The translations under genes and the position numbers were made by a program. A stretch of DNA of 61,628 nucleotides from a virus: the UHGV virus genome UHGV-1709118; one strand, given 5' to 3'. Each line of letters opens with the position of its first letter. The first letter of the stretch is position 1. Below, piece by piece: positions 1-61,628 of this stretch. Under the pieces are notes generated by a model that saw nothing but the letters and a program-made list of their open reading frames with translations, had not been told where the DNA came from and ran no database searches.

Positions 1-32
1 ATTACCTCGCGCCCGCTTTCGTTATTGGATAA
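1..32 (+). CDS. 3-prime end of DGR target gene (variable region, partial; gene body upstream of window)
   Basis: 1-15 matches TR 3-prime end attacctcgcgcccg; in the TR-equivalent frame the ORF reads YLAPAFVIG then TAA at 30-32. Confidence 0.55.
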   Translation, partial: YLAPAFVIG

Positions 33-59
33 CTGTAAAGTTACACAGTAAGGTTATAT

Positions 60-87
60 TGGCATTGGCCCTTTTGGGCCAATGCCA
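60..87 (+). promoter_or_regulatory. GC-rich stem-loop just downstream of VR (candidate DGR homing hairpin)
   Basis: perfect inverted repeat tggcattggccc-tttt-gggccaatgcca, 12-bp stem, no U-tract so not a typical terminator. Confidence 0.5.
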
Positions 88-148
88 TAGTATAAAAATG
101 CTTTCACCTTTTCTGGGAAAAATTTTTCTAAAAAAAATTTTTTTTCTT

Positions 149-177
149 TTGACTTTTTAAAAATTTTCTGATATAAT
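149..177 (+). promoter_or_regulatory. sigma70-like promoter upstream of avd-TR-RT operon
   Basis: TTGACT 149-154, 17-bp spacer, extended -10 TGaTATAAT 169-177; RBS aaggagg 197-203 before TTG start at 212. Confidence 0.5.
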
Positions 178-211
178 ATTACTTGTACGTTATTTAAAGG
201 AGGTTTTTAAT

Positions 212-676
212 TTGTCAGTAAGAAAAAAAGATAGGCATCAATCTAAAAATGATTATTTAAATGATGCAAGAAAGTTAGTTCATCAAGTATTGATTTTAGT
301 TCGTCCATATCAAGAATTAGATGATGGTTCTCATATAAAACCAGGCATTCTTGGTAATCCATACTATTATTCAGCCTTTGGCGCAGATATTTTAAAATGT
401 GCTAAAAACGCACATGGATATGCTTTCTCTGCTAGTTTAATCAATCTAAAAAATAAAAAAACTTTAGTTGAAAGAGCGGATTACTTTAATAAATCAATAA
501 GATATTGTGATTCAATTTTAAGGCAATTAGATTTATGTATTTATGAATATGGGTTAAATAATAAAAAGAAAAATAAATCTTTCAAATATGTTGCTAAACT
601 TACTTACAAATTAAAACAAAATCTTCTTGATAGAATAAATAGAGATAATCTAATTTATTCTCAGCGATACAAATAA
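212..676 (+). CDS. DGR accessory protein, Avd-like (accessory variability determinant) candidate
   Basis: 154-aa basic ORF (TTG start with good RBS) located between VR and TR as in avd-TR-RT cassettes; assignment is by position, not sequence identity. Confidence 0.4.
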   Translation: MSVRKKDRHQSKNDYLNDARKLVHQVLILVRPYQELDDGSHIKPGILGNPYYYSAFGADILKCAKNAHGYAFSASLINLKNKKTLVERADYFNKSIRYCDSILRQLDLCIYEYGLNNKKKNKSFKYVAKLTYKLKQNLLDRINRDNLIYSQRYK

Positions 677-699
677 TTTTTTATTCGGTTAAATTCTAA

Positions 700-814
700 A
701 AATATCGCGGGTCTCGCTACTACAACTCGAACAACACGAACAATGTGTGCAATGTCAACTCTGATGGTAATGCGAACAATACCAACTACAACAACAACAA
801 TTACCTCGCGCCCG
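700..814 (+). repeat. DGR template repeat (TR); 5-prime boundary approximate
   Basis: 3-prime end 800-814 identical to window 1-15; adenine-rich with many AAC codons in the VR-equivalent frame and no stop; GC-rich terminal block cctcgcgcccg. Confidence 0.7.
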
Positions 815-1121
815 ATTAGATGAGAACTCTAACTGTCTCTGGTGATGGAGCCGCAGGCGACATCGGCTGAGACGACTAAGTGTTACCCCAGAAAATTATA
901 ACCTATGTTATAACTCATCTATTTTTGGTATTTTCTGGACGCATTGGTTTTAAAACCAAGAAGGAGAGGAAATATTAAATAAAAGACTTAGATTATAATA
1001 GATAGCTTTCATTTAAGGAGAATTTAACCTTTTATCTATACAGATAATTAATTAAGATTGCGGATGTGCGTGTCAGAGCACACAATCTAGCACCGCATGA
1101 TAAAAAAAAGGAGAATTTTTT

Positions 1122-2354
1122 ATAGAAGAAAATCTTTTCCAGCGTTTTTGTAATTTTGACGCTTTTTATGATTCTTCTTATTCTATTTGCCGAAACGTAA
1201 GATGGAAAGATAGTACAGTTAATTTTGAAGAAAATAGATTAAATAACATCTTAACGCTTAAAGAACAATTAGAAAATGACAGTTATGAACAATTAGTTTT
1301 TAACAGTTTTAGTATAATTGAGCGGGGCAAACCTAGAGATATAAGAGCGTGCCATATTTATGACAGATTGGCACAAAATACATTATGTTCGCAAGTTCTT
1401 ATTCCAGAACTAACTCCAAAATTTATTTATGATAATTGTGCTACATTAAAAGGAAAAGGAATTGATTTTGCTTTGCTAGAAGTGCGTAAACATTTACAAG
1501 CAGCGCACAGAACATATGGTTTAGGAAAATCTTTTTATGGTTTAAGAATTGATATTCAAAAATTTTTTGATTCAATAGACCATAATTCTTTAAAGCAAAT
1601 GGCAAAACATTATATTAAAGAAAAACGAGTATTTAAATTAATTGATTATATTATTAATACCTTTTGTTTTTCAGTCACGAAAGATACAGTTCCTATTCCT
1701 GATAAACAATACTATATCATCAAAAAACAAAAATATAAGATAATTTATCCTAAACAATTTTATAAAAATTGTACTTATTATGAATTTAATCATAAAAGTT
1801 TAGGTTTAGGTAGTCAAGCATCTCAATTATTAGCTTTATTGGCATTAAATGGAATTGACCATTATGCAAAAGAGCATTTGCATTTAAAATATTATGGACG
1901 TTATATGGACGATATTTATATTTTGCATAATGACAAAGATTATTTAAAAGAATGTCTTAATAAAATTGAAAATGAATTAAATAAAATACATTTAAAATGT
2001 AACAAAAGAAAAACTAAAATAATTAAAATTAGTCCAATAAAACTAGATAAAAATAATTATCCTCATAAAAGACGTTCAGATAAACATAATCCATTTAAAT
2101 ATTTAAAATGGGATTTTTATTTAACTAATACGAATAAAATTATTCAAACTCCATTTAAAAAGAAAATAAAGCGACAATATAGAAAAATGAGAAAAATGCA
2201 CCAACTTTGGCTACAAGGTAAAATAACTGATATAGAAATTCAAGAATCATATCGAGGTTTTAGAGAACATATAAATAAAGGTACTACTTTTTATATTATA
2301 CAAAATCTTGATAATTATTTCCATTCATTATTTAAAGGAGTTGAAATATTATAA
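1122..2354 (+). CDS. DGR reverse transcriptase
   Basis: ORF track 1368-2354 has YMDD at 1902-1913 and LGSQASQ; open frame continues upstream to stop at 1101-1103 and encodes conserved N-terminal RT region (ERGKPRDIRACHIYDRLAQ); only ATA at 1122 follows RBS aaggaga, no ATG/GTG/TTG before 1368. Confidence 0.85.
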   Translation: MEENLFQRFCNFDAFYDSSYSICRNVRWKDSTVNFEENRLNNILTLKEQLENDSYEQLVFNSFSIIERGKPRDIRACHIYDRLAQNTLCSQVLIPELTPKFIYDNCATLKGKGIDFALLEVRKHLQAAHRTYGLGKSFYGLRIDIQKFFDSIDHNSLKQMAKHYIKEKRVFKLIDYIINTFCFSVTKDTVPIPDKQYYIIKKQKYKIIYPKQFYKNCTYYEFNHKSLGLGSQASQLLALLALNGIDHYAKEHLHLKYYGRYMDDIYILHNDKDYLKECLNKIENELNKIHLKCNKRKTKIIKISPIKLDKNNYPHKRRSDKHNPFKYLKWDFYLTNTNKIIQTPFKKKIKRQYRKMRKMHQLWLQGKITDIEIQESYRGFREHINKGTTFYIIQNLDNYFHSLFKGVEIL

Positions 2355-3013
2355 TGTATTTATTAATCAATAGAGAAAATATAGTAGTCGATATCCTCAC
2401 GGAAATCCGCTACATCAAATTACAATCCAACCCAAGTATTGTCATTGCTTGCTCGGAAGGTGAAGCTACAGGGGTAATAGGCTCAGATTGCAATAGCCAT
2501 TTCATTTTGGCTAATTCAGATATGACAGGTTCTATTGATGCAGTAAGAATTTTATCTTTTGATGGTAATATTCCAGAAGATTATGAACCTAATTTTTATA
2601 AATATGATAATGAAAAAAATGAATTAACATATTACTATTCTTTAGAAGAATACCAAAAAATGAAACAAGAAGAAAATAAAAAAGCTTTCGCTAATTTCCT
2701 TGTTAATCATCCTTTAACTTGGATTGATGGAAAGCAATATGGAGTTACAGAAGAAGACCAGGCAGAAATTAGCCTAAATATGAACCAATATTCTATGGCA
2801 ATTCAAGCTGGAGCCGAGAATCCTAGATTAGAATGGCATGCTCGCCAAGAAGAATGTACATCTTGGACAGTTGAAAATTTGACTGCTTTAACTTTAGCTA
2901 TTTCTGATTTTGTTTATCCTTATTATAGAAAAATGCAACAATATAAAACACAAATTTATACTGCTAAAAATTATAAGGAAATTAAAGCCATAGAATTAAA
3001 ATATGAAAATTAA
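2354..3013 (+). CDS. hypothetical protein, translationally coupled to RT (TAATG overlap)
   Basis: 219-aa ORF; ATG 2354 overlaps RT stop 2352-2354. Confidence 0.5.
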   Translation: MYLLINRENIVVDILTEIRYIKLQSNPSIVIACSEGEATGVIGSDCNSHFILANSDMTGSIDAVRILSFDGNIPEDYEPNFYKYDNEKNELTYYYSLEEYQKMKQEENKKAFANFLVNHPLTWIDGKQYGVTEEDQAEISLNMNQYSMAIQAGAENPRLEWHARQEECTSWTVENLTALTLAISDFVYPYYRKMQQYKTQIYTAKNYKEIKAIELKYEN

Positions 3014-3440
3014 TTCTTTTTTTAAAAATTCTATATTATTTTTGATTGGCGGAAGTATTTACTGGTTAATTGAATTTGTTTACAAAACATATATAAATTC
3101 AGGAAATACTCATTGGTCAATGTTTATCTTAGGCGGTTTATCTTTTTTAATTTTAGGTAGCTTAAATGAAAATATTCCTTGGAATTGGTCTTTATTAGCT
3201 CAAGGATTAATTGGAACCGCAATTATAACAAGTTTAGAATTTTTATTTGGATATATTTTAAACATTCAATTACAACTTAATATTTGGGATTATTCACATT
3301 TACCTTTTAATTATAAAGGACAAATATGTTTATCTTTTAGTTGTCTTTGGTTTATTCTAGGTCTAATAGGAATTATTTTAGATGATTTTCTTAGATGGAA
3401 AATCTTTGATGAAGAAAAACCTTATTATCATATTATATAA
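3003..3440 (+). CDS. small integral membrane protein (about 4 predicted TM helices)
   Basis: 145-aa ORF with four hydrophobic segments; overlaps previous gene by 11 nt. Confidence 0.5.
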   Translation: MKINSFFKNSILFLIGGSIYWLIEFVYKTYINSGNTHWSMFILGGLSFLILGSLNENIPWNWSLLAQGLIGTAIITSLEFLFGYILNIQLQLNIWDYSHLPFNYKGQICLSFSCLWFILGLIGIILDDFLRWKIFDEEKPYYHII

Positions 3441-3451
3441 AACAAAAAAAT

Positions 3452-3476
3452 GGGTAAGAGCATTTAGCTCTTACCC
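3452..3476. terminator. bidirectional rho-independent terminator between convergent DGR operon and tail operon
   Basis: gggtaagagc-attta-gctcttaccc with A-run upstream and T-run downstream. Confidence 0.65.
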
Positions 3477-3488
3477 ATTTTATTTTTA

Positions 3489-4091
3489 TTAACAATTATC
3501 TACGATAATAATGCCTATGCTATCAGTAGGTTTTTCTTTTATCTCAAAAGTAACTCCAAAGCCAGGAGTAGCAGTAGCCTTTTCAATTTTAGAATATTCT
3601 TCTAAATTACTGGTATAAGTAATAATTGGCGGAACCGTACCATCAGCACCACATTTCAAAGTTTCAATTAAATAAGACATTTTATAAACTTCTCCATCTA
3701 ATGTCCAAGCTCCTACGGACAATGTAGCAGGATAAGCCTTAGAAGTGACCTTATCAGTAGCAGTTTTAATATTATCACTTACTTCTGTTTTACTATAAAC
3801 ATCTAAATTGGTTCTTGCTTCAGCCGCAGTTTTACCACCAGTGCCACCATGTTCTATATCAATAATATCAGAATTTAAAACCAATTCTTCTGGATCAATT
3901 TCTATTTCAACTGTTCCAGCCGCATTAAATTTCCGAAGTTTCTCTGCATATCCCGCATTTAGTTTATGTCTAGCATTATTAAAATCGACATACATACAAT
4001 CATTTTCTTCTAGGATATAAGCATAAGACTCTTTGACTGCGACTTGGTTCATTTCAGCTTCTGTTCCATAAAAAACTTTAAATAAAGCCAT
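3489..4091 (-). CDS. tail-fibre-associated protein (last gene of tail operon)
   Basis: 200-aa ORF at distal end of minus-strand structural operon. Confidence 0.4.
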   Translation of the reverse strand: MALFKVFYGTEAEMNQVAVKESYAYILEENDCMYVDFNNARHKLNAGYAEKLRKFNAAGTVEIEIDPEELVLNSDIIDIEHGGTGGKTAAEARTNLDVYSKTEVSDNIKTATDKVTSKAYPATLSVGAWTLDGEVYKMSYLIETLKCGADGTVPPIITYTSNLEEYSKIEKATATPGFGVTFEIKEKPTDSIGIIIVDNC

Positions 4092-4162
4092 AATTTTCCT
4101 CCTTATATAAAAACATAAGGGGAAGAATAAAATCTTCCCCTTAGAAAAGAATATCTTATTCT

Positions 4163-6352
4163 TTAGTTTAATAAATCTGAAATTCTACCCCATGTATTAA
4201 TACTATTAATTTGGGTAATAATTTCTTCTATTTTTGTATCTAAAGTTTTAGCATTATATGTTTCTTTATCTTTATCTACTGGATTGGAATTAATTCTATT
4301 GCCGACAGTAGTAATTAAATTATCTATTACTTTAGCAGTGTAAGTACCTTTTGTTTTATCAGCAGGTTCATCACTGATTAAAGCTGCAACTTCATTTATT
4401 TTTGTTTGTAATGCTTCATTTTTCTCATTAATAGCTTTTGCGGTATAGGTTTTTCGCTCTAAATCCGCAGCTAAAATTTCATTAACAATTAAGTTATTAA
4501 TATAATTAGCCGTATATGTTTTATTAGTGCTATTATCTATATCATACTTATCTTGTAATAAGCTGGCTACACCACCAGTTAATTGCGCTCTTCCCCAAGC
4601 ATTATTTGTATAATAATACCAATATGCAGTATCACCATTTTCAACAGAAGAATAAGTCACTTGTAAAATTTCATCTGAACTTATACCATTAGGATAATAA
4701 GCTTTTAATTTATTTCCAATATTTTCAAGTGTATCAACACCATCTGCTTCAGTAAAAGTATATGAATTTTTAATATTAAGAGCTTTACCAACTGGGCCTT
4801 CTATGTTTTTATCAGTTTTAGTCCAAGCTGTACCATTAAATAAATATATATTACCTCTAAAATCATCTGTCATATCATCAACAGAATAAAGGTAATAGTC
4901 CCCATTTTGAGCGCCTTCAATAATAGTATTTAACTTATTATCATTCACTTCATCGCCGACAAACCAACGTGCGCCGCTAGGTAGTATAAATTTAAAATTA
5001 ATAGTATCAGTACCGACAATACTTTTTTCTACTGTTCCTTCATCTGCGGAACCAACATCTTCATAGGTAGAAGTAATATTTGGAATTGTTGGAAAAATAA
5101 ACTTATGAATAGGGCCAGTTTTTTCAATAGGGTCTTTATAACTAGACTCAATAGTAACGTCTACTCTTTCTCCTGATTCAGTAAATGGATCTTTTATATC
5201 AGTTTGTACTTCAGGAGTTTTACCAGCCAAACAAGCACAATAAACAAAAGTAGTAGAAGTTTCAGTAATCTGACTAATATAATAAATAAAACCAGTATCT
5301 TTATTTATATAATAATCTCCTACCTTCGCGTTAGGAACAATAGTACCTAAAGAATAAGTTATATCTTTTGATTGTCCTAATAAATCTCCATAAAAAAATT
5401 CTGCTGATTCTGGCAAATTAAAAGTAAACTGCGGATTATCGGGATCAGCAGAGATTTCAACTGTTGGTAATTCCGCAGGAGCTAAATGATTAGTAATAAC
5501 ATCAGTGCGGAATTTTTGTGAGCGTGGAATCTTTAAATGAATTGTTACTATGTGGTCATTATCATAGGTCAAAGAACATTCAGGTGTTTGACCTGGTTCT
5601 AAAGTGCTAAAATCAATAGGAGCAAAATCATAACCTTTAGGCAACCACATATTCAATTTTTTTGTTTGTTTATCTTCGTCTAAAGTAATCGTTGCCCTTG
5701 GCTCAGAATCCGCAGAAATATATTCAATATTTCCAATTTCAAATTCCCACATCTCTGGTAAAGTAAAAGTAATAATAGGATGATTAATATCATCTTCATT
5801 ATAATTTAATGTAGGAATAACAGTTTCGCCAGGTTTTTTGGTAATTAAATCTGCCATAACCATTACTTGACTTTGTGGCAAACTGAATAAAACCGAAGGG
5901 AAATCTGTATCGTTATTATCTACATCTACTGTTGGTTCTTGGTCTGCATTAAGAACAGTAGATGGCAAAATAATTTTAATTCTAGGAGTTTCACCAGTTA
6001 AAGAAGTAATTAATTTATAACCAAGACCATAATTTTTGTCTGACAAATATAAAATTTCTATCCCTCTAATTGGTTCTTCTCCTGCATGTTCTTCTTCAGT
6101 AAAAATTTTTTGCCAAAGAGTAGAATTATAAGCTCTTTTATATTTCGCAGTATCCACATCTTTATTAGCATCATAAATTGCTCGTTGCTCAGGAGTTCCA
6201 CCAGGTAGGCCATAAGAAATCATTACAATTTCTCCAACTCCAATAGGAGATTGCCATCTTTTGTCTAAATCGGCTACCATAGCAACTTTATTTTTAAATA
6301 TTTGTTTTATCTCAAAGTTTTTTCCTTGCTGTCCACCATAAAAACTAAACAA
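4163..6352 (-). CDS. tail fibre protein
   Basis: 729-aa ORF; C-terminal repeated motif K-x-Y-T-A-K-x-I-[DN]-x-x-I (4 copies); position in tail module. Confidence 0.55.
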   Translation of the reverse strand: MFSFYGGQQGKNFEIKQIFKNKVAMVADLDKRWQSPIGVGEIVMISYGLPGGTPEQRAIYDANKDVDTAKYKRAYNSTLWQKIFTEEEHAGEEPIRGIEILYLSDKNYGLGYKLITSLTGETPRIKIILPSTVLNADQEPTVDVDNNDTDFPSVLFSLPQSQVMVMADLITKKPGETVIPTLNYNEDDINHPIITFTLPEMWEFEIGNIEYISADSEPRATITLDEDKQTKKLNMWLPKGYDFAPIDFSTLEPGQTPECSLTYDNDHIVTIHLKIPRSQKFRTDVITNHLAPAELPTVEISADPDNPQFTFNLPESAEFFYGDLLGQSKDITYSLGTIVPNAKVGDYYINKDTGFIYYISQITETSTTFVYCACLAGKTPEVQTDIKDPFTESGERVDVTIESSYKDPIEKTGPIHKFIFPTIPNITSTYEDVGSADEGTVEKSIVGTDTINFKFILPSGARWFVGDEVNDNKLNTIIEGAQNGDYYLYSVDDMTDDFRGNIYLFNGTAWTKTDKNIEGPVGKALNIKNSYTFTEADGVDTLENIGNKLKAYYPNGISSDEILQVTYSSVENGDTAYWYYYTNNAWGRAQLTGGVASLLQDKYDIDNSTNKTYTANYINNLIVNEILAADLERKTYTAKAINEKNEALQTKINEVAALISDEPADKTKGTYTAKVIDNLITTVGNRINSNPVDKDKETYNAKTLDTKIEEIITQINSINTWGRISDLLN

Positions 6353-6365
6353 TTATAGCACCTCC

Positions 6366-6974
6366 TTAATAAATAAAATCTATAATTACATTATATAAAT
6401 CTTTATATGGATTTTCTGCATCAAGTTTATATACACCATTAATACCAGTATTATATTGCGCTAACGCCACTCGATAAGCTTCATCATATACAGCCTGAAT
6501 CTGATTATATTCAGCCCAGTAAGCATTATTATGTTCAGGATATTTTTTTTCAAGCTCTGCCATAGAAACTTTTCGAGCTGTTTCCGCAGCTTCTAATTTT
6601 TTCTTACCATCTGAAAGATTTTTTTCTGTTGTTTCAGTATCTAATATGTAATTTTTAGGGCGAAGAAAATATAATCCAGTAATAGCAATATCTTCATCCA
6701 ACTCATAAACTCCCGTGCGGCCTATCATAATATTTTTATTAGTATTCATTACTAATTTAGTACCAGGAGGAGCCTGTATTCCTACTTTAGAAAATTGTTT
6801 ACTTGCATAAATTTCTACTAGATTACGAGTAAAAATATCTATTTTATTAGTTTCATAATCTGGATCAGTAGCAGAAGTAATAGTTTGAGTAGTATTGCCA
6901 TTAGCTGTAGAAATATATCCGCCACTAGAATTATAATCTTCTAAATTATAAATTATCTGACCAACATTTGCCAT
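6366..6974 (-). CDS. tail/baseplate protein, hypothetical
   Basis: 202-aa ORF in tail module. Confidence 0.4.
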   Translation of the reverse strand: MANVGQIIYNLEDYNSSGGYISTANGNTTQTITSATDPDYETNKIDIFTRNLVEIYASKQFSKVGIQAPPGTKLVMNTNKNIMIGRTGVYELDEDIAITGLYFLRPKNYILDTETTEKNLSDGKKKLEAAETARKVSMAELEKKYPEHNNAYWAEYNQIQAVYDEAYRVALAQYNTGINGVYKLDAENPYKDLYNVIIDFIY

Positions 6975-6989
6975 TTAATTTATTCCTCC

Positions 6990-8885
6990 TTATACTCTAG
7001 TTAGCACTTCTGTAGCTGTAATTGACATTGTGCCTGAATAAGTTAAAGGTAAAGTAATTTGAGAAATCGCATAATTTCCTATAATATTACTTTCCATATC
7101 TTCTATATAAATAATATTATTTGGTTCTAAATAATACTTGGGTACTCCTTGTATAGTAACTTGAGTATTATAACTTAAATTTTGATATAATAATTCTCGA
7201 ATTTGATCAAAAGCACTAGAACCAGTAGAACTACTAGCAAAAATAGATTTATAATTATCAGTAATTCTAAAATATTTTTGACCAATAGAATCATAATATT
7301 TTCTTTTTTCTACATTTTCCCATTGTTCTTGGGTCATAAAAATAACATCAGGAACTTCTGTATTATATATACAAGTTACTTCAGAACTATTAATAACTTT
7401 TGTGCGACGTCCAATCATATTGACTGAGTATTTACCAATTGCTGCACCAGTATCTATAAAATCTAGCCAATAATTTAAATTTCTAGGGTCAGAATAAACT
7501 TTTGGATTCCAATTATCTGTTGCTTTCCAATCTGCATTTTCAGGGTCATATAAATTACGCCATTCAGCTAATAGTTCCATATCATAATTACTATTTGTTA
7601 AATTATTTAAGGAAGCAATTAAAGCTTGTCTATATAATTCTTCTCGCCATTCTTTACAAGGACTAGCTATTAATTTACCATTAACAGGAGGATTATTTGT
7701 ATAAGTAAATTCATATCTTAATAAAACTTCATTCTCATAAATACCCCACATATATTGTAAACAATAATTAAGAATTGGTTTAGCATCAATAGCTAAATGA
7801 TAACGAATATCTATTTCTGCACCATCTGTTGTTTTTCTTTTTCCCCATACAATAAAATCATTTTTAATTTCATCATATTTTGGAGCAATAGCAAGAGAAG
7901 TAATATTATCTAAATCAGTTAAACTATAAGCATATTTTGTGTTTGAATAATTCTGCACATAATCTTCAATATTTAAATCTAATAGCGGACTTCCAGTGTT
8001 TAAATAATTTTTCTTTTCTTGAAAAATAAAACGTCCATCTATATCATAAAAAAATTCAAAATTGCCTAAAATATCGCAAATCTTATTTAATAAAGTAACT
8101 ACACTATCGCCAGCTTTTAAAATCAATTCTCCAGGATAAGTAAAATCTGTTTCTTTATATCCAATATCTTGTCCATTTATAAACATATAAGGATAAGTAT
8201 CTCCAGGAGTATAACTTAAACTAGAATAATTATTACTTAGATATATAGGTTGTTCTCCAATATATTTTACTAAAAGTTTTGCGGTTTCCTCTAAATCTGT
8301 AATAAAAATATTGTTTATTGGCTCTTCTCCCCAATGATTAACTGCTTCTTGAATAATTTGGTAAATAGTAGGGTAATTAACTACTGCTTCTGTTTTATCC
8401 TTATTATACACATATGATTCATGGAAAGTAACAGAAGCAGGTAACATTCCACCTACACTACCATCTAGCATTACCATTTTATCTTTACCAGAAATACTAA
8501 TAGTCCAACCACCAGTTGCTCTAGTAATACTAGCAGTAGAAACCAAAAAAACCCCGCAAGGAAACCAAATAATTTCTCCATATTTTTGATATTCTCTTAA
8601 AGGATTATTATATCCAATTAAAATTTTAATTTTTTTATTTAAAGAAATATCATTATCTAAATTTGTTAAATCATTATTATTTAAATTAGCCAACATAGTT
8701 AAGCTAATAGTTCTTCTAATTGCGGAAGAACCATTAATTGATAATGAACCGGCAGTAATATTACCTTGAATTTCTTTAATAGGTTTTTCATCAAAAGAAA
8801 GAAGAATAAGTTTTGCATATTGAACGCGAACTCGCAATTTATCTAACTTGTTTAAAAAATCATAATCTTTAAGATATTCAAACAT
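6990..8885 (-). CDS. baseplate or tail-fibre protein
   Basis: 631-aa ORF in tail module. Confidence 0.45.
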   Translation of the reverse strand: MFEYLKDYDFLNKLDKLRVRVQYAKLILLSFDEKPIKEIQGNITAGSLSINGSSAIRRTISLTMLANLNNNDLTNLDNDISLNKKIKILIGYNNPLREYQKYGEIIWFPCGVFLVSTASITRATGGWTISISGKDKMVMLDGSVGGMLPASVTFHESYVYNKDKTEAVVNYPTIYQIIQEAVNHWGEEPINNIFITDLEETAKLLVKYIGEQPIYLSNNYSSLSYTPGDTYPYMFINGQDIGYKETDFTYPGELILKAGDSVVTLLNKICDILGNFEFFYDIDGRFIFQEKKNYLNTGSPLLDLNIEDYVQNYSNTKYAYSLTDLDNITSLAIAPKYDEIKNDFIVWGKRKTTDGAEIDIRYHLAIDAKPILNYCLQYMWGIYENEVLLRYEFTYTNNPPVNGKLIASPCKEWREELYRQALIASLNNLTNSNYDMELLAEWRNLYDPENADWKATDNWNPKVYSDPRNLNYWLDFIDTGAAIGKYSVNMIGRRTKVINSSEVTCIYNTEVPDVIFMTQEQWENVEKRKYYDSIGQKYFRITDNYKSIFASSSTGSSAFDQIRELLYQNLSYNTQVTIQGVPKYYLEPNNIIYIEDMESNIIGNYAISQITLPLTYSGTMSITATEVLTRV

Positions 8886-8899
8886 ATTCTTCCTCCTCT

Positions 8900-43659: not shown

Positions 43660-43661
43660 AA

Positions 43662-52871: not shown

Positions 52872-52876
52872 AAGGC

Positions 52877-52905
52877 TTGACAAAGACCGGACTGTATGGT
52901 ATAAT
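52877..52905 (+). promoter_or_regulatory. early promoter
   Basis: TTGACA 52877-52882, 17-bp spacer, TGgTATAAT. Confidence 0.55.
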
Positions 52906-52937
52906 ACAGGTACAATAAAAGAAAGGAAGTAAAAAAC

Positions 52938-53946: not shown

Positions 53947-53990
53947 GTAAAAGCATGATATAATAACAATAGAAAACAGGAAAGGAATTG

Positions 53991-54524
53991 ATGATTATGT
54001 TCTCTATCAAAAATTGTAATAGCGTTCTGGAAGGTGCTGCTCAGGTCGTTAAACTGTTCGGGGATGAACCCTTCACTTCTGATAGATATGATGCGGCTCG
54101 TGGTAAGGGACGCTCTAAGGCGGAAACTCTCTTCAACCACAACATCATCAAAGTGGTGGGTAAAGCGCCGGTCTATGATACAAATTGGCCTAGATGCAGA
54201 GAAACTGCTCCTTATGTAACAAACCGTGCCGGCGAACTTCTTATGAAGTATAAGGAATACAGAGAGCTGCCGGTAGCGGCAAAGGAAGCTCTAATTGCAG
54301 CCAATGGTGGGGAAGAGTTGGGCATCCACTATGATAGAAGTGATATTACTATCTGCTATCGAGATACTTTTGCCTTTAATGCAAGCGGGTATCAAGAATA
54401 TCTCCAGGAAGTTTATACGAATCTTCTTTTTCAGATAGAAAGTAAGAAACAGGAAGTTCTTAAAATGGAGGATTGTTTTGGTAAGGTAGTTAAAGCATTT
54501 CAAGCAAATGCAATGAAGTTATAA
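53991..54524 (+). CDS. hypothetical protein
   Basis: ORF track 53988-54524; promoter TTGACA-TGaTATAAT overlaps previous gene end. Confidence 0.45.
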   Translation: MIMFSIKNCNSVLEGAAQVVKLFGDEPFTSDRYDAARGKGRSKAETLFNHNIIKVVGKAPVYDTNWPRCRETAPYVTNRAGELLMKYKEYRELPVAAKEALIAANGGEELGIHYDRSDITICYRDTFAFNASGYQEYLQEVYTNLLFQIESKKQEVLKMEDCFGKVVKAFQANAMKL

Positions 54525-54613
54525 AAATCTTTCACTTTGTGCAATTTATCTATTGACAAAACAAAGCAAAGATGCTATAATGAATACAGAAATTAAGAAA
54601 GGAACTGATAGCT

Positions 54614-54835
54614 ATGCTGTGTATGAAGAACGTGTTCAATGTCATGAAAGGTATCACTCGCGTAAGAGATAAGTTCAGAGGAAAAGGGTTCACTTTTTCT
54701 GAGTATAGCACCGATGACTATCAGAATTACTTACGTTATTTACAGACTGCGTTTGAATTAAAAACTATGGACAAAGAGCAGGAACTTGACAAATTGAAAG
54801 CTAATCTTGACAAAGTGGAAAAGGAAATGAGATAA
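54614..54835 (+). CDS. hypothetical small protein
   Basis: 73-aa ORF; bidirectional-type terminator 54841-54867 follows. Confidence 0.45.
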   Translation: MLCMKNVFNVMKGITRVRDKFRGKGFTFSEYSTDDYQNYLRYLQTAFELKTMDKEQELDKLKANLDKVEKEMR

Positions 54836-54881
54836 AAAAATGAGGGATTTTTCCCTCATTTTTTTTTGTACATTTTGCCTA

Positions 54882-54910
54882 TTGACAAAACCGCAGCTTT
54901 ATGGTACAAT
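54882..54910 (+). promoter_or_regulatory. promoter driving ORF-free GC-rich hairpin transcript
   Basis: TTGACA 54882-54887, 17-bp spacer, TGgTACAAT 54902-54910. Confidence 0.5.
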
Positions 54911-55020
54911 GGCGCGGCGCCCACGGCTGTGGAGCGCCGAAATTTCAATTATACCACGCGGCACAAAATTTGTCAAGAGTTAAACTGCACAAAATCTATT
55001 TGGGAAAAATCCCACTTTTT
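54911..55020 (+). ncRNA. candidate small RNA (5-prime GC hairpin, weak terminator)
   Basis: promoter immediately upstream; hairpin 54911-54939; gggaaaaatccca + T-run at 55001-55020; no RBS-ATG ORF. Confidence 0.3.
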
Positions 55021-55317
55021 GTGCAATTTGCCTATTGCAATTTGGGTGAAATCTGATATAATAAATAATGTCAGGAGGGAGTAGCCCAAGAAATCCTAGG
55101 GCGGCCGACTTAGAGAAAGTATAGGAAGTAAACGGAATACATCAAGTGGTAAGTCTTATATCATGTGGTAATTGTTATTGCCCAACATGCTCTGGAAGCC
55201 GTAAATCTTGTGAAAAGTTTGCGAAACCTCTTGACAAACCCCAAGAAACATGCTATAATAAGCATGTAATCAAGAGAAGGACAAACTCTTAAAAACCAGA
55301 AAGCGAGATAGGTGTTT

Positions 55318-55734
55318 ATGGAAAATACTAACAAGAGAATTACTAAGCGTGAGCGTTTCCAGTCTTTGATTGAGCTGGTGGAACTGTGCGAAGGCCGTGA
55401 GGATGAAGGCTTTGACTTTGAGGGTCTGACCGATTTCCTTTCCAATGAGATTCGCCTGCTGGACGCTAAGAAGGGTTCCAATTCCCGCAAGCAGACTGCC
55501 CGCCAGACTGAGAATGAGCATTTTAAGGCTCTGATTGCCGAGCGGTTGACCGAAGAGGGCATGACTATTGCAATGCTCCGCAAGACCATTCCTGAACTGG
55601 AGGATTTGACTCCCCAGCGTATTGCCCCTATGTGCAAGGCTCTTGTCTCTGAGGGTATTGCTTACAAGGATACCTGCAAGGGTATCGCCCACTTTTACAA
55701 GGCGCAGGCCGTAGTAGAAGAGGAAGAGGGCTAA
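55318..55734 (+). CDS. hypothetical protein, paralog of 49233-49589
   Basis: see paralog; ATG 55318. Confidence 0.5.
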   Translation: MENTNKRITKRERFQSLIELVELCEGREDEGFDFEGLTDFLSNEIRLLDAKKGSNSRKQTARQTENEHFKALIAERLTEEGMTIAMLRKTIPELEDLTPQRIAPMCKALVSEGIAYKDTCKGIAHFYKAQAVVEEEEG

Positions 55735-55758
55735 GGCCCTCTTCCCTAGAAGGGAGGT

Positions 55759-56148
55759 ATGTTTTTGGATAAAGCAAAAGAAGCAATCGCAAGAATCCAA
55801 GCCGGCATCAAATGCAGCTATGAAAAAGCAGTAGAAATCTATAAGACAGATTGCGAGGTTGACAAAGGCATCCCGCATGAATGGGATTTGACCGAGGAAC
55901 AGCAAAAGGTAGCAAAGAAATATACTATTACCGGGCAACATACTAAGAAGCATGACCGCAAGGCTCCGGTCAAAAGAGAAAGAAAAGAGAACCCCACTAA
56001 AGCAAATTTGATTGCGGAACTTGCAGGTTTTCTTGAATCTTTGGGGATTTGTGACGTAAAAATTGCAAATCCTGAGCGACAGATTGCTTTTTCTGTGGAT
56101 AATAACGCCTTTGAGCTGACTTTAGTTCAAAAAAGGGCCAAAAAGTAA
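55759..56148 (+). CDS. hypothetical protein, paralog of 49649-50011
   Basis: see paralog; RBS gggagg. Confidence 0.5.
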   Translation: MFLDKAKEAIARIQAGIKCSYEKAVEIYKTDCEVDKGIPHEWDLTEEQQKVAKKYTITGQHTKKHDRKAPVKRERKENPTKANLIAELAGFLESLGICDVKIANPERQIAFSVDNNAFELTLVQKRAKK

Positions 56149-56205
56149 AGTTTTTGGCCCTTTTCACTTAAAAAAGAGCTAATTTTGACGAAAAAGGTGA
56201 TGTAA

Positions 56206-56550
56206 ATGCAACAAAAGAAAGAGTATTTGTATGTAGGTCACTATTTTGACATAGAAGGCAACTACATTCTCAAAATAGGCACTACTAACGATTTAGCCCG
56301 GAGACAGCAAGAGCATACCAGAAATTATAAGCGTTCACCTAAGTTTACTATGCCGAAATCCGCTAAGTTTGTCTATGATTGGCATCTGCCTTTATCTAAG
56401 TATTCAACTTTGCGGTATGAGGATAAGAATCGTGCAGCATGGCAGGAATCTTCTATCGGCGAATTTGTCCGCAATGACAGATTTTGCTGTAAGCAAAAGC
56501 CCAAGAAAGTAAAGGTTACTATCCGCAAAACTTATGAGATCGAGTTATAA
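56206..56550 (+). CDS. GIY-YIG-like nuclease domain protein
   Basis: YLYVGHY...ILKIGTTNDLARRQQEH resembles GIY-YIG motif (GIY ... YIG-T-N-L-R ... E/H). Confidence 0.4.
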   Translation: MQQKKEYLYVGHYFDIEGNYILKIGTTNDLARRQQEHTRNYKRSPKFTMPKSAKFVYDWHLPLSKYSTLRYEDKNRAAWQESSIGEFVRNDRFCCKQKPKKVKVTIRKTYEIEL

Positions 56551-56563
56551 GGAGGAAGAAAAC

Positions 56564-56782
56564 ATGGTTGTTATTAAAAAGCAGTGCGAAGTTCACTTAT
56601 CCCAGGAGGAAATTGACTGTCTTGAAAAAGCAGCTGACATTCTCAATGAAATTTGGTCAGTAATGCCTGCTGAAAGTTATATTGGTGATAAGAAAGTAAT
56701 GTATGCTGAGGATGTCGGAGAAATGTCAGATAATCTGCAAGACTTGGCAACTATCGGAGAAAATATTGTGGTTGAAGATTAA
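56564..56782 (+). CDS. hypothetical small acidic protein
   Basis: ATG 56564 after RBS aaggagga. Confidence 0.4.
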   Translation: MVVIKKQCEVHLSQEEIDCLEKAADILNEIWSVMPAESYIGDKKVMYAEDVGEMSDNLQDLATIGENIVVED

Positions 56783-57101
56783 CGGTTACCAAAGGATAGT
56801 GGTTAATAGCCACTATCCTTTTTTATCCCTATACTTGTTATAAGCAAAAGTAAAGTAATAACAAAACTCAGCGGGCCGCACTTGGTGGATGCGGCCCGAA
56901 TTCGCGTCAATACACATTTTCCACAATTTTTCTGCTTTTGATTTGTACAATTTTACTTATTGACATTTTCCTAAAATTATGTTATTATATAATCACAAAA
57001 GGAAAGGGGATTTAAAAATTTCAAAAAAATAAAAAAGGTCTTGACAAACCAGGGCAAAGATGCTATAATGAATACAGAAATTAAGGAAAGAGGTTGATAG
57101 T

Positions 57102-57377
57102 ATGAATGAACGCAGAGACTTCATTGCAAAGAACTGGGGTGAGGATGTTCTTGAAGCTATTGATAGCTGTGAGCCGTTAAACATTACCTTTGGCCAGTTT
57201 TTGGACAAGTGCGTTGCTTGCGGTGGCAACTGGGGCGGTATGCTTCTAACTGGCCTGAAGAAGTTGCGGCCTGAGATTTGGGAAGCCATTCCCCAAAATA
57301 TGGGTCTTTATGCTTGGCAGTGCATCTGCAATACTTTAATCCTTGCTGGTGTGGTTATGGAAGAAGAAGAGGGCTAA
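57102..57377 (+). CDS. hypothetical early protein
   Basis: 91-aa ORF after promoter TTGACA-TGcTATAAT and conserved leader. Confidence 0.45.
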   Translation: MNERRDFIAKNWGEDVLEAIDSCEPLNITFGQFLDKCVACGGNWGGMLLTGLKKLRPEIWEAIPQNMGLYAWQCICNTLILAGVVMEEEEG

Positions 57378-57410
57378 AAAGCCCTTTTCCATAAAGAAAG
57401 GAAGGTAGAA

Positions 57411-57692
57411 ATGGAAATTAGAAAACCTACGAATTGGTTGGATGCTAAAGGGATGCTTGACAAAACACTACAAGCAAGATCTACAGTAATCACTGAAGCC
57501 CTTGGGCAAATTATGTTTAATCTTCTAAGTGCCGCAGAAGATGGAAAATTTGCTACTACTATTAATCTTCTAGAAGATACAAAAATTATTACTCAAATAC
57601 TTGAGGAAGCAGACTATAAGGTTCAATTTCTTAAACCAAATGGTGAATACTCACAATATATTGTTTGCTGGGAAAAGGAGGACGAAGAATAA
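57411..57692 (+). CDS. hypothetical early protein
   Basis: 93-aa ORF. Confidence 0.45.
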   Translation: MEIRKPTNWLDAKGMLDKTLQARSTVITEALGQIMFNLLSAAEDGKFATTINLLEDTKIITQILEEADYKVQFLKPNGEYSQYIVCWEKEDEE

Positions 57693-57883
57693 TGATTATC
57701 AAAATTACTGACCGCTACAACGGCGATTTCGCGAAGTTTGATTCTTTGCAGAAAGCCTATGACTACTTCATGGACTATGACAAAGAATGTGAGGGAGATT
57801 GGTGGCCATTGATTACTATTGATGGGGCTTGGGTTCCTCTGGAAGAGTTTTTCGTGATGTATAAAGAAAAGGGGTGCAAATGA
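57692..57883 (+). CDS. hypothetical small protein, tandem paralog A
   Basis: MIIKITDRYNGDFAKFDSLQKAYDYF... similar to next ORF. Confidence 0.4.
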   Translation: MIIKITDRYNGDFAKFDSLQKAYDYFMDYDKECEGDWWPLITIDGAWVPLEEFFVMYKEKGCK

Positions 57884-58074
57884 TAATGACTATCAAAATT
57901 ACTGAGTTATACGATGATGATGTGGCAGAGTTTAAGTCTCTGCCAGAAGCATGGGCTTATTATTGTTATTGGGAAAAAGAATCTAAAGGGAAATGGTTGC
58001 CACTGATATTTATCAATAGAAAGATGGTATCACATGAAACGTTCTATAAGATGTGTAGAAAGGTGGGTGTTTAA
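57880..58074 (+). CDS. hypothetical small protein, tandem paralog B
   Basis: MTIKITELYDDDVAEFKSLPEAWAYY... similar to previous ORF. Confidence 0.4.
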   Translation: MIMTIKITELYDDDVAEFKSLPEAWAYYCYWEKESKGKWLPLIFINRKMVSHETFYKMCRKVGV

Positions 58075-58542
58075 TTGTCTTTACTCTTGTTATTCATTGG
58101 TCTTTCTATCGCCAATGTGGTTTTTTCGACAATCAAAAGCATTGTAACTATTAACGGCACACCATTTTCCGCAAGCATGATTTCCGCTTTATACTATGGT
58201 TATTATAACATAGTTCTTATTTACACAGTCGCGGATTTCCCTCTGTGGCAGAAGGTATTAGTTACCTTTGGCTGTAATCTGGTTGGCGTGTATGCGGTTA
58301 AGTGGGCGGAAGCAAAAGGAAGAAAAGAAAAGTTGTGGCGAATTGAGGTTACTGTCCCTAGTGAATTTACAAAACAACTTCACGAAAGATTAAACCCAAT
58401 CCCGCACAACTATATTGAAAATGTAGGTAAATATTCAATTTTTAATATTTACTGTGCTACACAAATGGAGAGTAGCCAAGTCAAGAAAATTCTGGTGGAT
58501 TACAATGCCAAATACTTTGTGACAGAAACTAAAGAACTCTGA
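58075..58542 (+). CDS. membrane-associated hypothetical protein
   Basis: 155-aa ORF (TTG start) with hydrophobic N-terminal half; terminator 58532-58570. Confidence 0.4.
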   Translation: MSLLLLFIGLSIANVVFSTIKSIVTINGTPFSASMISALYYGYYNIVLIYTVADFPLWQKVLVTFGCNLVGVYAVKWAEAKGRKEKLWRIEVTVPSEFTKQLHERLNPIPHNYIENVGKYSIFNIYCATQMESSQVKKILVDYNAKYFVTETKEL

Positions 58543-58623
58543 GAATACTCAGAGTTCTTTTTTTGTTTTTTCTAAAAAATTATGTTATAATATATATAGA
58601 AATTAAGGAAAGGAGCTTTTCTA

Positions 58624-58740
58624 ATGACCTGTGAATTATTAAAGGCACTTGCGGTGATTATTGAATACTGCTTAAAGCAGGATAATTGCAAAGTTTGTGT
58701 TATGCGTGATTTCTGTTCTAAGATGCCTTGTGAGTGGTAA
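58624..58740 (+). CDS. Cys-rich mini-protein (38 aa, not in ORF track)
   Basis: ATG 58624 after aaggaaaggag; CxxxxC...CxxC pattern. Confidence 0.3.
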   Translation: MTCELLKALAVIIEYCLKQDNCKVCVMRDFCSKMPCEW

Positions 58741-58827
58741 ATTACTTTAAAGATTTTAGAGATAGAAAGGCCCGTTTTAGGGTCGAAATTTCGCACGTCT
58801 AGGTCATCAGAAAAAAAATATCTGGAT

Positions 58828-59028
58828 ATGTTGAAAACTGAATTTGCCAGAAAGCTGGACTCGACTGGTCGATTAGTTATCCCTTCTAAGTTAAGAGATT
58901 ATCTAGGAATGGAAACCGGCCAGTTATTTACTTTTTATATTCAAAAAGAAGAAAATGGAGATGTGTATTTGTGTGTGAAGTGTCCTAGTAATAAAATAAA
59001 ATTTACTTTTGGTGAAAATGCCGATTGA
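58828..59028 (+). CDS. AbrB/MazE-like small DNA-binding protein
   Basis: RKLDSTGRLVIPSKLRDYLGMETGQLFTFY matches AbrB/SpoVT swapped-hairpin signature. Confidence 0.5.
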   Translation: MLKTEFARKLDSTGRLVIPSKLRDYLGMETGQLFTFYIQKEENGDVYLCVKCPSNKIKFTFGENAD

Positions 59029-59053
59029 CATAAGGCTGGTTTTATGGTATACT
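59025..59053 (+). promoter_or_regulatory. promoter for ORF-free transcript
   Basis: TTGACA 59025-59030, 17-bp spacer, TGgTATACT 59045-59053. Confidence 0.55.
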
Positions 59054-59059
59054 ATATAT

Positions 59060-59205
59060 AAGGAGTGGCGGGCTGTGGACAGTGGTCACAGCCCGAAATC
59101 CCCTTTCCACTAGCATATGGCGATTTTTCTAGACTTCTAGCGACCCTTCATATGGCCGGGGTTTTTCCCGAAAGTGGCTCACCCGCTCGGGAAAAATTTT
59201 TTTTA
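59060..59205 (+). ncRNA. candidate small RNA (about 145 nt)
   Basis: consensus promoter upstream; 9-bp GC hairpin 59069-59095; terminator-like hairpin plus T-run 59156-59204; no plausible ORF. Confidence 0.35.
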
Positions 59206-59408
59206 ATTTGTCAAGTCAAAGCCCGCATTTGACTTTTTAAAAATTTAAGGCATAAAAAAAAATCAACTTGACTTTTCAAAAAATAAAAGAAAAAATAAAG
59301 TCAAGTTGATTAATAATTAAAAATATTATATAATATTTATATAAACAAAAGGAAAAAGAAAAAGAGATTGCATATGCCCGCTCGGTTTGTTGAAAGTGAG
59401 GTTAGAGC

Positions 59409-60116
59409 TTAAAATGCGGATTCATACAAGTCATGATCGGTTGATCTAACTAACATTTTTCCAGTCTCATCTCTAAATTTGAATATTACATCCTGAAATG
59501 TACCTTCAAAAGCAAGGCGATCCGCGTGATTTAAATATTCTTCTTTAGTCATGTCAGTTTTTCTAAATTCTTTTTCTAGTAATACCATACGTTGAATAAT
59601 TTCTGGCTTATCACCAAAAATAGCGGTAGTATATTCATCAAAGATTCTTTGCTCCTCTGGAGTTAAATCTCGATAGGGTTTGCCGTTTACTGCTTTATCA
59701 AGCTTAATACCCCACTGATATTTGCGGGTTCCATAGATACCCTTGCTGATTTCATCAGCGGTAACTCCAAATCCTATCACTCCAGCTTTGGTCATACGGC
59801 GTCTTCTTTGACTATCAGTTAATTTAGCATATTGTGGCAAAGAACTAATTTCTTCTGCTATATTAGAAATAGAATTAAGAGGATATTTACGCACTTGGTC
59901 TAAATAAACTTGAACATCTTGTGATAAATCACCTTGATATTCATCAATATAAATTTCTTTTACAATAATACCTCCATATACTTCTTCATAATCACAGTAA
60001 TCTTTTAAGAAAGGCATTACTTGTGATTTCTTTTTGCTTTTAAAAAAGTTATAAGTATAACCAAACCAATCGGCTAACTCTCTTGACGTAATTTTACCTA
60101 ATTGTAATTGTTTCAT
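59409..60116 (-). CDS. helix-turn-helix regulator-like protein, divergent from early genes
   Basis: 235-aa ORF; N-terminal LGKITSRELADWFG resembles an HTH. Confidence 0.45.
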   Translation of the reverse strand: MKQLQLGKITSRELADWFGYTYNFFKSKKKSQVMPFLKDYCDYEEVYGGIIVKEIYIDEYQGDLSQDVQVYLDQVRKYPLNSISNIAEEISSLPQYAKLTDSQRRRRMTKAGVIGFGVTADEISKGIYGTRKYQWGIKLDKAVNGKPYRDLTPEEQRIFDEYTTAIFGDKPEIIQRMVLLEKEFRKTDMTKEEYLNHADRLAFEGTFQDVIFKFRDETGKMLVRSTDHDLYESAF

Positions 60117-60283
60117 TTTATTTTGTCTCCTTTTAAAAAAATTTTTTATATTTGGGCAAAACCTAATAGTGGATACTATTTATGCACTCTCTTATATTTC
60201 TCTAACGGTGTGCATGTTTGATATCTACTATCTTAATTAAATAAAATTGCTACTTTTACTTCACTACTCTACTTATAATAACG

Positions 60284-60355
60284 TAAATAAGTCATCCTTT
60301 GGATGACTTATTTACTAAGGAATAATAAATCGACCTTTGGTCGATTTATTATTCC
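60284..60355. repeat. two tandem perfect AT-rich palindromes (14- and 17-bp arms, each with ttt centre)
   Basis: taaataagtcatcc-ttt-ggatgacttattta and ggaataataaatcgacc-ttt-ggtcgatttattattcc. Confidence 0.6.
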
Positions 60356-60528
60356 ATTAACTTTTCTCTCTCACTTTCAATTTTCCCTTCAGAAATTGTG
60401 AGTTCCATTCCCCAATTTTTTCCAAATGAAAATTCAAAATAACTACTCCCCTATATCCACAATTGAAAATATTAAAAAATTATTATATAATATATATAGA
60501 AAAACAAAAGGAAAGGAATTAAAAATTT

Positions 60529-61083
60529 ATGTCTACTTATAAGGTTAATGATTGCTGTAACGCCTCTACTGCCGAGCTTAACTCTTCTTGCAACTGCAAG
60601 ACTACTATGAAGTTTGAGGACTATATTGTGGACGAGCTGCGCAAGGGCAAGTCTATGGATGAAATTATGAAGTATATCTCTGAGCGAGCTAATGCCGCGG
60701 AGTCTACTTTTAAAGCAGAGCAAAATAAAAAGAAGAGTTTTTGGTTGGTGAAGACTCCTGTTGAGGGTGATAGAGATTTCATTTTTGGTAATCTGCATGT
60801 AAAGATTAATGATGCTCTTGTTCATTTGAGTAATGGTAAGATTACTACTGAAGATTTCATTATTCTTTTGATTGAGGGTCTTTATCAGATTGCTCCTGCT
60901 ATGCGCCCTATGCTTGATGAGATTAGTCTTGATGATGATAGTATTAATCTTCTGGCTGAGAGCATGAATAAGGAATTGAGCAAGATGGATAAGCTTTTCT
61001 CTGTTGCTAAGGCTTTTAGTAATGAGACTGATGATGACGCAGAAAGAATTAATAAGTTTTTGGACTCTCTCACTCTACTGTAA
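60529..61083 (+). CDS. hypothetical protein
   Basis: 184-aa ORF; terminator hairpin 61082-61101. Confidence 0.45.
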   Translation: MSTYKVNDCCNASTAELNSSCNCKTTMKFEDYIVDELRKGKSMDEIMKYISERANAAESTFKAEQNKKKSFWLVKTPVEGDRDFIFGNLHVKINDALVHLSNGKITTEDFIILLIEGLYQIAPAMRPMLDEISLDDDSINLLAESMNKELSKMDKLFSVAKAFSNETDDDAERINKFLDSLTLL

Positions 61084-61162
61084 AAGGGGATAACCCCTTT
61101 TACAGGGGTAGGTGCGGTTGACAAGAATTGAAAATGAGTAATAGGTAGGTGAGTGCTGCGCA

Positions 61163-61275
61163 AAGCACCTCTCCATTTTAGAATATTTTAAGAGATTTTA
61201 TTATAAGCACCTCTCCATTTTAGAATATTTTAAGAGATTTTATTATAAGCACCTCTCCATTTTAGAATATATTTT
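61163..61275. repeat. 42-bp direct tandem repeat, about 2.7 copies (iteron-like)
   Basis: unit aagcacctctccattttagaatattttaagagattttattat at 61163, 61205 and partial at 61247. Confidence 0.7.
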
Positions 61276-61628
61276 AATAAAAACACTTCTCTAATTCGTA
61301 AACCCTTTCTTTTAATCTTCTTTATTTCCATTGAAAAAATAACTTTCAAGGTGATTTTCCCCACTACTTCTTTAAAAACCATTGCAAAAAATCTCTCCTC
61401 TAGTGTCTTTTGATGAGAAAAAACGCTATATCACAATTCGCCAATTAGAAAAAAAATCAACTCAAACTTTTAAACTGGCATCCTCACGAACCTATCTCCT
61501 TTCCGAAGATAATTCCTCTTTGAAAATAGAACGAATCCACGTCTTTAAAAACCGAGAGAATAAACATTTTCTCTCCTTCAAATACACTAATCCCATTGAT
61601 TTCCAAATCTGGGTAAAAGAGTATACTA

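Follow-up and report, generated by a model that had tools for sequence, protein, structure and literature searches.

What does it mean that 61.6 kb of phage DNA carries no recognizable gene for replication, integration or a holin? The sequence in question is a stretch of 61,628 nt from the virus genome UHGV-1709118, the whole of which we refer to as the window. A preliminary description noted these absences and left two explanations: either a larger genome extends past the window and holds there the replication module and the target of the diversity-generating retroelement (DGR), or the phage relies heavily on host replication. We find that the window is almost certainly an internal 61.6-kb slice of a siphovirus genome (double-stranded DNA, ~137 kb) that comes from human-gut metagenomes, with the replication and holin genes outside the cut. 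The slice comprises a DGR cassette without its target gene, the whole minus-strand packaging, head and tail operon, and ~20 kb of early-type small open reading frames (ORFs) that appear to be preceded by perfect host sigma-70-type promoters. The phage therefore replicates with its own replisome, encoded in the ~76 kb outside the window. Because the genome is modular, the position of the cuts explains which genes are missing, and their absence requires no appeal to chance.

To assess the absence itself, profile hidden Markov models (HMMs) were run on essentially every ORF of at least 45 aa, together with alternative plus-strand ORFs that overlap longer, spurious minus-strand ORFs; small ORFs were joined by linkers for these scans. 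Pfam and PHROGs were applied to all blocks and NCBIfam to the 20 largest unannotated ORFs of the early block and the DGR end, with thresholds of E ≤ 0.01 for Pfam and NCBIfam and E ≤ 0.001 for PHROGs. No window ORF matched an integrase/recombinase, DNA-dependent DNA polymerase, primase, helicase or holin family in the three libraries, and the holin result holds for every window ORF in Pfam and PHROGs. A Pfam scan of ten unannotated ORFs relaxed to E ≤ 1 returned only noise, except for weak Toprim matches on the primase of the flank. The reported lack of replication, integration and holin genes in the window is thus confirmed. The nucleic acid enzymes that the window does encode are a DGR reverse transcriptase, a homing-endonuclease-like gene and an exonuclease of predicted DEDDh fold, and its lysis enzyme is a SleB-type cell-wall hydrolase. 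Four small proteins with hydrophobic segments (Table 1) match no holin family; they could be holin-like or other membrane effectors.

We located the same phage in other assemblies by exact-protein look-ups and walked the flanks through protein-cluster members to the contigs that encode them. At the window start, locus L084 (Logan ERR1136622_298) matches positions 1-12354 at 100% and reaches 8.6 kb further upstream. At the other end, loci L081 and L087 of a 137,652-bp contig (ENA ERZ27261223 k119_16178) match positions 60129-61628 at 99.4-100% and reach 19 kb downstream. This segment forms the first 1.4 kb of k119_16178, whose positions 115647-136354 correspond to window 38416-59123 (100% over 20,708 nt) and whose last 11 kb correspond to window 49409-60253; the first and last 125 nt of the contig are 93-97% identical. 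A further locus, L122, matches window 25321-46958 at 99.93%, and the overlaps between L087 and L098, L095 and L100, and L084 and L095 are 99.6-100% identical. Continuity of the sequence is directly observed in these alignments, and the proposal of a larger genome is borne out by assemblies, 99.9-100% identical, that run past both ends. Aligned coordinates place window position 1 at ~77.2 kb on k119_16178. The proteins of both flanks are present on this contig, and members of their clusters are found in many further samples, where the contigs measure 133-140 kb. We infer that the window makes up ~45% of a ~137.4-kb genome that assembles as a circle.

The flanks supply what the window lacks (Table 1). 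A full replication module begins ~15 kb upstream of the window start, where the preliminary description had only surmised one beyond the ends, and a holin gene lies nearer; compared with the full module set of relatives, the window is incomplete, with replication genes and holin found only in the flanking 76 kb. The module is directly visible as gene content, and its Pfam matches (including NRDD, dUTPase, YorF and YorH) come from L089, L095 and L100. Its polymerase III (Pol III) alpha subunit is 38.8% identical to SPbeta YorL (SPBc2 yorL) over 99% of its length. Since the genome encodes Pol III alpha, DnaB, a primase, a second helicase and a RecJ-like protein, along with gyrase A and B, a ligase, RNase H and nucleotide-supply enzymes, we reject the alternative of heavy reliance on host replication. 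Downstream of the 3' end follow ~38 kb of mostly small ORFs.

Neither a tyrosine nor a large serine integrase was flagged in the ~135 of 137.4 kb that were mapped (~2.65 kb are unseen), and a serine invertase/resolvase-type gene upstream is the only recombinase flagged there. When GTDB species genomes were searched for prophages and hosts, all relatives lay on contigs of phage size, in metagenome-assembled genome (MAG) bins of inconsistent taxonomy, which point to neither a host nor an integration site. The lifestyle may be nonintegrating. The invertase-type gene adjoins a 594-aa fiber-like gene and the DGR target gene; a Gin/Cin-like invertible fiber segment beside it is unsupported, as only weak AT-rich inverted repeats were seen.

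Could 61.6 kb nevertheless be a complete or near-complete genome that uses the host replisome? The failure of three libraries to detect any replication family in the window would fit this view, but it is refuted by the flanking sequence, and we assign it a negligible probability. The identical sequence runs on at both sides in independent assemblies, the 137,652-bp contig among them, and the continuation carries a full replisome. Within the window, there is no terminal direct repeat, circular overlap or defined terminus, and its ends share no match at k = 20-100. Both ends cut genes: 32 nt remain of the first, including its stop codon, and the second is a 142-aa ORF that is full length in L081 (1136-1564). 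Nor do we give much credence to a chimeric assembly in which the structural module was joined to an unrelated early module of higher guanine-plus-cytosine (GC) content. The rise in GC from ~0.30 to 0.39 across 46000-59200 might suggest one, as might ERZ28663801 scaffold_70, an assembly of the same phage that breaks on both sides of this region. However, chimerism is rejected because the junctions recur at 99.9-100% in independent assemblies: k119_16178 (window 38416-60253), ERR1136622_2350 (window 25321-54595) and further Logan contigs. A family of promoter/5' untranslated region repeats also spans both sides of the GC step.

A less remote, though still unlikely, alternative is that the window holds replication genes too divergent for profile HMMs, such as the DEDDh exonuclease, which might proofread for the YorL-type Pol III alpha; initiator or single-stranded DNA-binding-like proteins of small size might also hide among the unannotated ORFs. 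The exonuclease was missed by Pfam and PDB sequence searches, yet has a predicted DEDDh fold with Pol III epsilon and polymerase exonuclease domains among its matches, and ~30 early ORFs have no family at all. However, the core replisome is clearly elsewhere, the exonuclease has fold matches to exonuclease I, oligoribonuclease and TREX1 that are as good or better, and it is the only protein that was modeled. The interpretation of the window as an internal slice also has points against it. The map of the missing 76 kb is stitched from k119_16178, ERZ28663801 scaffold_70, a Logan SRR25317205 contig and ERR1136622_298 rather than read from one record; L098 and L100 do not overlap, and the ~2.65-kb gap has a PhoH-like gene on one side and RNase H on the other. 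The 137,652-bp contig closes into a circle only imperfectly (93-97% over the 125 nt), so any placement of the physical termini would be tentative. Flank annotations are mostly precomputed Pfam matches, the comparison with other assemblies covers window 1-12354 and 25321-61628, and a look-up of the exact 2,857-aa tape measure product found it not on record.

The practical lesson is one of quality control: a module missing from a fixed-size window is not biology until the flanks have been checked. The boundary effect is ordinary, and GenBank already contains proteins of this phage under the name 'MAG TPA: Caudoviricetes sp.' By-products of the analysis are a map of the genes of this uncultured, SPbeta-like gut phage of ~137 kb, a DGR that becomes complete once the window edge is crossed, a family of DEDDh exonucleases that is widespread but unannotated, and a very regular early promoter array.

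Table 1. Features of the window and its flanks, with flank distances computed from locus coordinates and counted from the window ends.
Feature	Position	Strand	Basis or remark
ThyX, ATP-dependent DNA ligase, GyrA, GyrB, RNase H	upstream, out to ~35 kb		Thy1, DNA_ligase_A_M, DNA_topoisoIV, DNA_gyraseB, RNase_H
YorH, Sak4-like ATPase, YorF	upstream, beyond DnaB		phrog_124 8e-53 (Sak4-like ATPase)
DnaB	23.7-25.2 kb upstream		DnaB + DnaB_C
Primase	upstream, between RecJ-like protein and DnaB		phrog_47 2.7e-38
RecJ-like DHH protein	upstream, beyond helicase		DHH + RecJ_OB
UvrD/RecD-like helicase	upstream, beyond Pol III alpha		AAA_19/UvrD_C_2
Pol III alpha, 1279 aa	15.2-19.1 kb upstream		PHP + DNA_pol3_alpha + finger + HHH_6
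dUTPase, NrdG, NrdD, guanylate kinase	9.5-15.2 kb upstream		
Several genes of no known function	upstream, between holin and dUTPase		
Holin	5.1-5.5 kb upstream (L084 3166-3570)		phrog_13712 2.9e-32
Serine recombinase, invertase/resolvase type, 205-208 aa	4.4-5.0 kb upstream (L084 3628-4254)		PF00239; phrog_125 'DNA invertase' 7.5e-51
Fiber-like gene, 594 aa	upstream, beyond DGR target gene		627 aa in another strain (L090)
Variable repeat (VR), 108 nt	-89 to 18 (L084 8544-8651)		
DGR target gene, last 32 nt	1-32	+	L084 ORF 6881/6902-8665; stop codon 30-32
Short block	212-3440	+	
ORF at DGR accessory (Avd) position, 154 aa	212-676	+	between target gene and template repeat/reverse transcriptase
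Template repeat (TR), 108 nt	710-817	+	
DGR-type reverse transcriptase, 328 aa	1368-2354	+	PF00078 7e-14; phrog_1423 'Reverse transcriptase' 1.5e-56
DUF4376-like protein	2354-3013	+	4.6e-4, 21.1 bits, below 25-bit cut-off
Multi-pass membrane protein, 145 aa, hydrophobic segments	3003-3440	+	PF06541 1.3e-13
Late operon, 38 kb	3489-41350	-	~98% coding
Seven distal-tail/fiber/baseplate-type genes (200, 729, 202, 631, 912, 119, 1424 aa)	3489-16386	-	most without family
Tail-type gene	6990-8885	-	phrog_1887 'tail protein' 1.3e-10; phrog_32343
Tail-type gene	8900-11638	-	phrog_30026
Tail tape measure protein, 2857 aa	16441-25014	-	PF10145 1.6e-26; phrog_4211 6.4e-70
Tail, connector and head genes, SPbeta Yom/Yon type	25133-35305	-	PHROG matches
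Tail tube-like gene	27595-28536	-	
YonB-type gene at capsid position	32271-33308	-	
Portal protein, 540 aa	35321-36943	-	phrog_2739 1.7e-82
Homing-endonuclease-like gene, 122 aa	36963-37331	-	between portal and terminase; phrog_9084 5.2e-29; phrog_559 6.2e-27
Terminase large subunit (TerL), SPbeta YonF type, 581 aa	37364-39109	-	
YonG-like protein	39106-40410	-	phrog_3314 2.5e-58; PF27269 YonG_N on identical L102 and L122
Sigma-factor-like protein, C-terminal Zn-ribbon/HNH-like motif	40304-41350	-	phrog_5767 'sigma factor' 1e-40
Promoter array, 18 perfect TTGACA-N17-TATAAT sites	41499-57069	15/18 on +	
Small-ORF block	41576 to window end	+	
ClpP-family protease	41868-42467	+	
SleB-type cell-wall hydrolase	42481-43053	+	PF07486 4.5e-12; N-terminal hydrophobic/transmembrane segment
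P-loop protein	43647-44360	+	
HAD-like phosphatase	47770-48333	+	
DEDDh (DnaQ-like) 3'-5' exonuclease-fold protein, 235 aa	48416-49123	+	predicted fold
Small protein, hydrophobic segment, charged C terminus	50507-50737		
Small protein, hydrophobic segment	50787-50930		
AbrB/MazE-fold proteins, two	52938-53336, 58828-59028	+	
Small protein, hydrophobic segment	58075-58542		
142-aa ORF, 5' part	61382-61628	+	open at window 3' end
Metallophos phosphoesterases; GIY-YIG and PDDEXK nucleases	downstream flank		
Radical-SAM enzyme paired with Cxxx-repeat protein; DUF2828/vWA-like protein	downstream flank		
S8 peptidase with SLH domain; RNA ligase; PhoH/PIN protein	downstream flank		

The DGR straddles the window start and is complete when window 1-2354 is joined to L084 6881-8665. 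As the preliminary description supposed, its target lies beyond the end: the gene stops at position 32, and the window starts inside the VR. Most of the gene is upstream, and its product is a 587/594-aa Big_3-domain protein. The VR reaches to window position 18, 14 nt before the end of the target stop codon, and its 3' end, in positions 1-18, is GC rich and resembles an initiation of mutagenic homing (IMH) element. The TR/VR pair is observed directly, with 89 of 108 positions identical and all 19 mismatches at TR adenines (19 of 38). This arrangement recalls the DGR of Bordetella phage BPP-1 in the order of target and VR, accessory ORF, TR and reverse transcriptase, in its adenine-specific mismatches and in the GC-rich conserved end of VR and TR. 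It differs from that system in its target, a Big_3-domain protein outside the window, and in its accessory ORF, which matches neither Avd nor any other profile in Pfam, PHROGs or NCBIfam. The region that follows the reverse transcriptase (2354-3440) matches phrog_20274, whose function is not known, at 2.6e-35; the membrane protein encoded in it is a holin-like candidate by topology only and matches no holin family.

The small-ORF block agrees with its earlier characterization as consisting almost entirely of small proteins. It contains 42 plus-strand ORFs at 41576-61083, with a median of 112 aa and a maximum of 254 aa, and 33 of them are shorter than 150 aa. The perfect promoter sites, 17 of 18 with a TG extended -10, sit ahead of small ORFs and are mixed with terminator-like hairpins. 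Both kinds of signal exceed their frequency in shuffled sequence: 101 promoter-like sites were observed versus 59.8 ± 7.2, and 37 terminator-like sites versus 13.6 ± 3.6. Promoter regions fall into repeat families (D1-D4), and in many cases a conserved leader (ACAGAAATTAAGRAAGAGGT) and then a small ORF come after the promoter. The block has the look of numerous very short transcription units with strong promoters, and it is presumably expressed early and the minus-strand operon late. Two duplications were seen in the block: a two-gene unit at 49233-50011 is paralogous to one at 55312-56148 (DNA repeat D16, shared phrog_6324 matches), and the adjacent ~70-aa ORFs at 57665-57883 and 57874-58074 share 71% DNA identity (repeat D10). 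An ORF at 52107-52871 that was read by eye as kinase-like has no profile support, and we make no such claim.

The window is AT rich, with a GC content of 0.27-0.32 outside 46000-59200. That region recurs identically in independent assemblies and is therefore not a chimera; it may represent a module that is exchanged horizontally or varies between strains. Among INPHARED phages, neither it (46-59.2 kb) nor window 25-45 kb has a nucleotide match. We can also imagine, with considerable doubt, a more ambitious reading in which a phage without any integration system carries the 46.0-59.2 kb block (39% versus 30% GC) as a horizontally exchanged takeover module, driven by the 18 perfect sigma-70 promoters and with the DEDDh exonuclease as its flagship.

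Judging from its predicted fold, the exonuclease is the one gene of the window that is a candidate for a role in replication. It has no Pfam match and no PDB sequence match; in PHROGs it matches phrog_20187 (4e-44) and, weakly, phrog_192. Its AlphaFold model (pLDDT 79) gave Foldseek matches to exonuclease I (TMq 0.54), oligoribonuclease, TREX1, Pol III epsilon and the exonuclease domains of herpesvirus polymerases. A subthreshold match to TIGR01406 dnaQ (E 0.0046), the only NCBIfam match among the 20 ORFs, agrees with this fold. On the same doubtful reading, the protein could either supply the proofreading subunit that the YorL-type polymerase lacks or attack nucleic acids of the host or signaling nucleotides. 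Its family spans more than 4,000 metagenome clusters, the 120 best listed of which are at least 70% identical to it, and this conservation is unusually strong for an early phage gene.

By sequence, the phage is a distant relative of the SPbeta-like siphoviruses, which it also resembles in how it works, and of the gut phAss-1/Enterococcus H1 group. With Bacillus phage SPbeta (SPBc2, 134,416 bp), phi3T, SPR and Goe13 it shares genome size class, a giant tape measure gene, a YonF-type TerL and, outside the window, a replication module with YorL-type Pol III alpha, YorF and YorH. Precomputed Pfam matches to YomO, YomU_Tube, YomV_2nd, YomW, YonB and YonD_N on the 99.93% identical L122, and YonG_N among loci 99.9-100% identical to the window, extend the likeness to the structural genes. 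The distal-tail genes at 3489-16386 have no Pfam match. It differs from the SPbeta group in its distant protein identity (about 30-39%), its DGR cassette, its GC content of ~30% and its human-gut source. An SprA-type large serine integrase was not flagged in the mapped ~135 kb, in contrast to the small invertase-type recombinase.

TerL was assigned by tblastn to annotated TerL genes of 120-170 kb phages and by matches to phrog_15503, phrog_24618 and, weakly, the TerL family phrog_5909. Its relatives include Enterococcus phages H1, VRE9_4 and EF1, Geobacillus virus E3, phAss-1, Brevibacillus phage Sundance ('YonF') and large Bacillus siphoviruses. All such relatives among cultured or deposited phages have genomes of 120-170 kb, and those in IMG/VR lie on contigs of up to 100-190 kb. 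The phages of the proposed Phassvirus group are human-gut siphoviruses of 133-138 kb with tape measures of ~3150 aa, and phAss-1 and its closest relatives recode TAG to glutamine and carry suppressor tRNAs (PMC10607447). The phage studied here resembles phAss-1, Enterococcus H1, VRE9_4, EF1 and Geobacillus E3 in TerL (44-48% identical), genome size (~135-141 kb) and tape measure length (~3000 aa). It also shares with them the arrangement in blocks of terminase, structural, nucleic acid metabolism and lysis genes, and homing endonucleases in or near TerL. Unlike phAss-1, it reads cleanly in the standard code in the window, where the core genes are all intact in code 11, in-frame TAG is absent and a search found neither tRNA nor suppressor tRNA genes; the lack of nucleotide-level similarity of window 25-45 and 46-59.2 kb to INPHARED records also sets it apart from the group. 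As a stop codon, TAG hardly occurs: it ends none of 26 late genes and 1 of 46 plus-strand genes, which could simply reflect an AT-rich codon preference.

In another strain (L123 6595-9580, Logan ERR11473693_6843), gene calling breaks TerL into three pieces (75, 300 and 482 aa), and an HNH homing endonuclease interrupts the TerL match of Enterococcus phages EF1 and EF5. These observations suggest mobile insertions in TerL within this phage group. Two proteins of the flanks have no assigned function: one of 279 aa with a Cys-rich tail (L084 1454-2293) and one of 557 aa with multiple CxxC motifs (L087 9128-10801). The downstream radical-SAM enzyme adjoins its Cxxx-repeat 'tSAM target' protein (L098 6214-8215), and the two look like a pair of the ribosomally synthesized and post-translationally modified peptide (RiPP) kind. 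Near the window's 3' end, a 42-bp tandem repeat at 61163-61288 has two copies that are perfect and a third that is degenerate. At exactly this point the 137,652-bp contig lacks 106 nt, and repeat copy number thus differs between strains.

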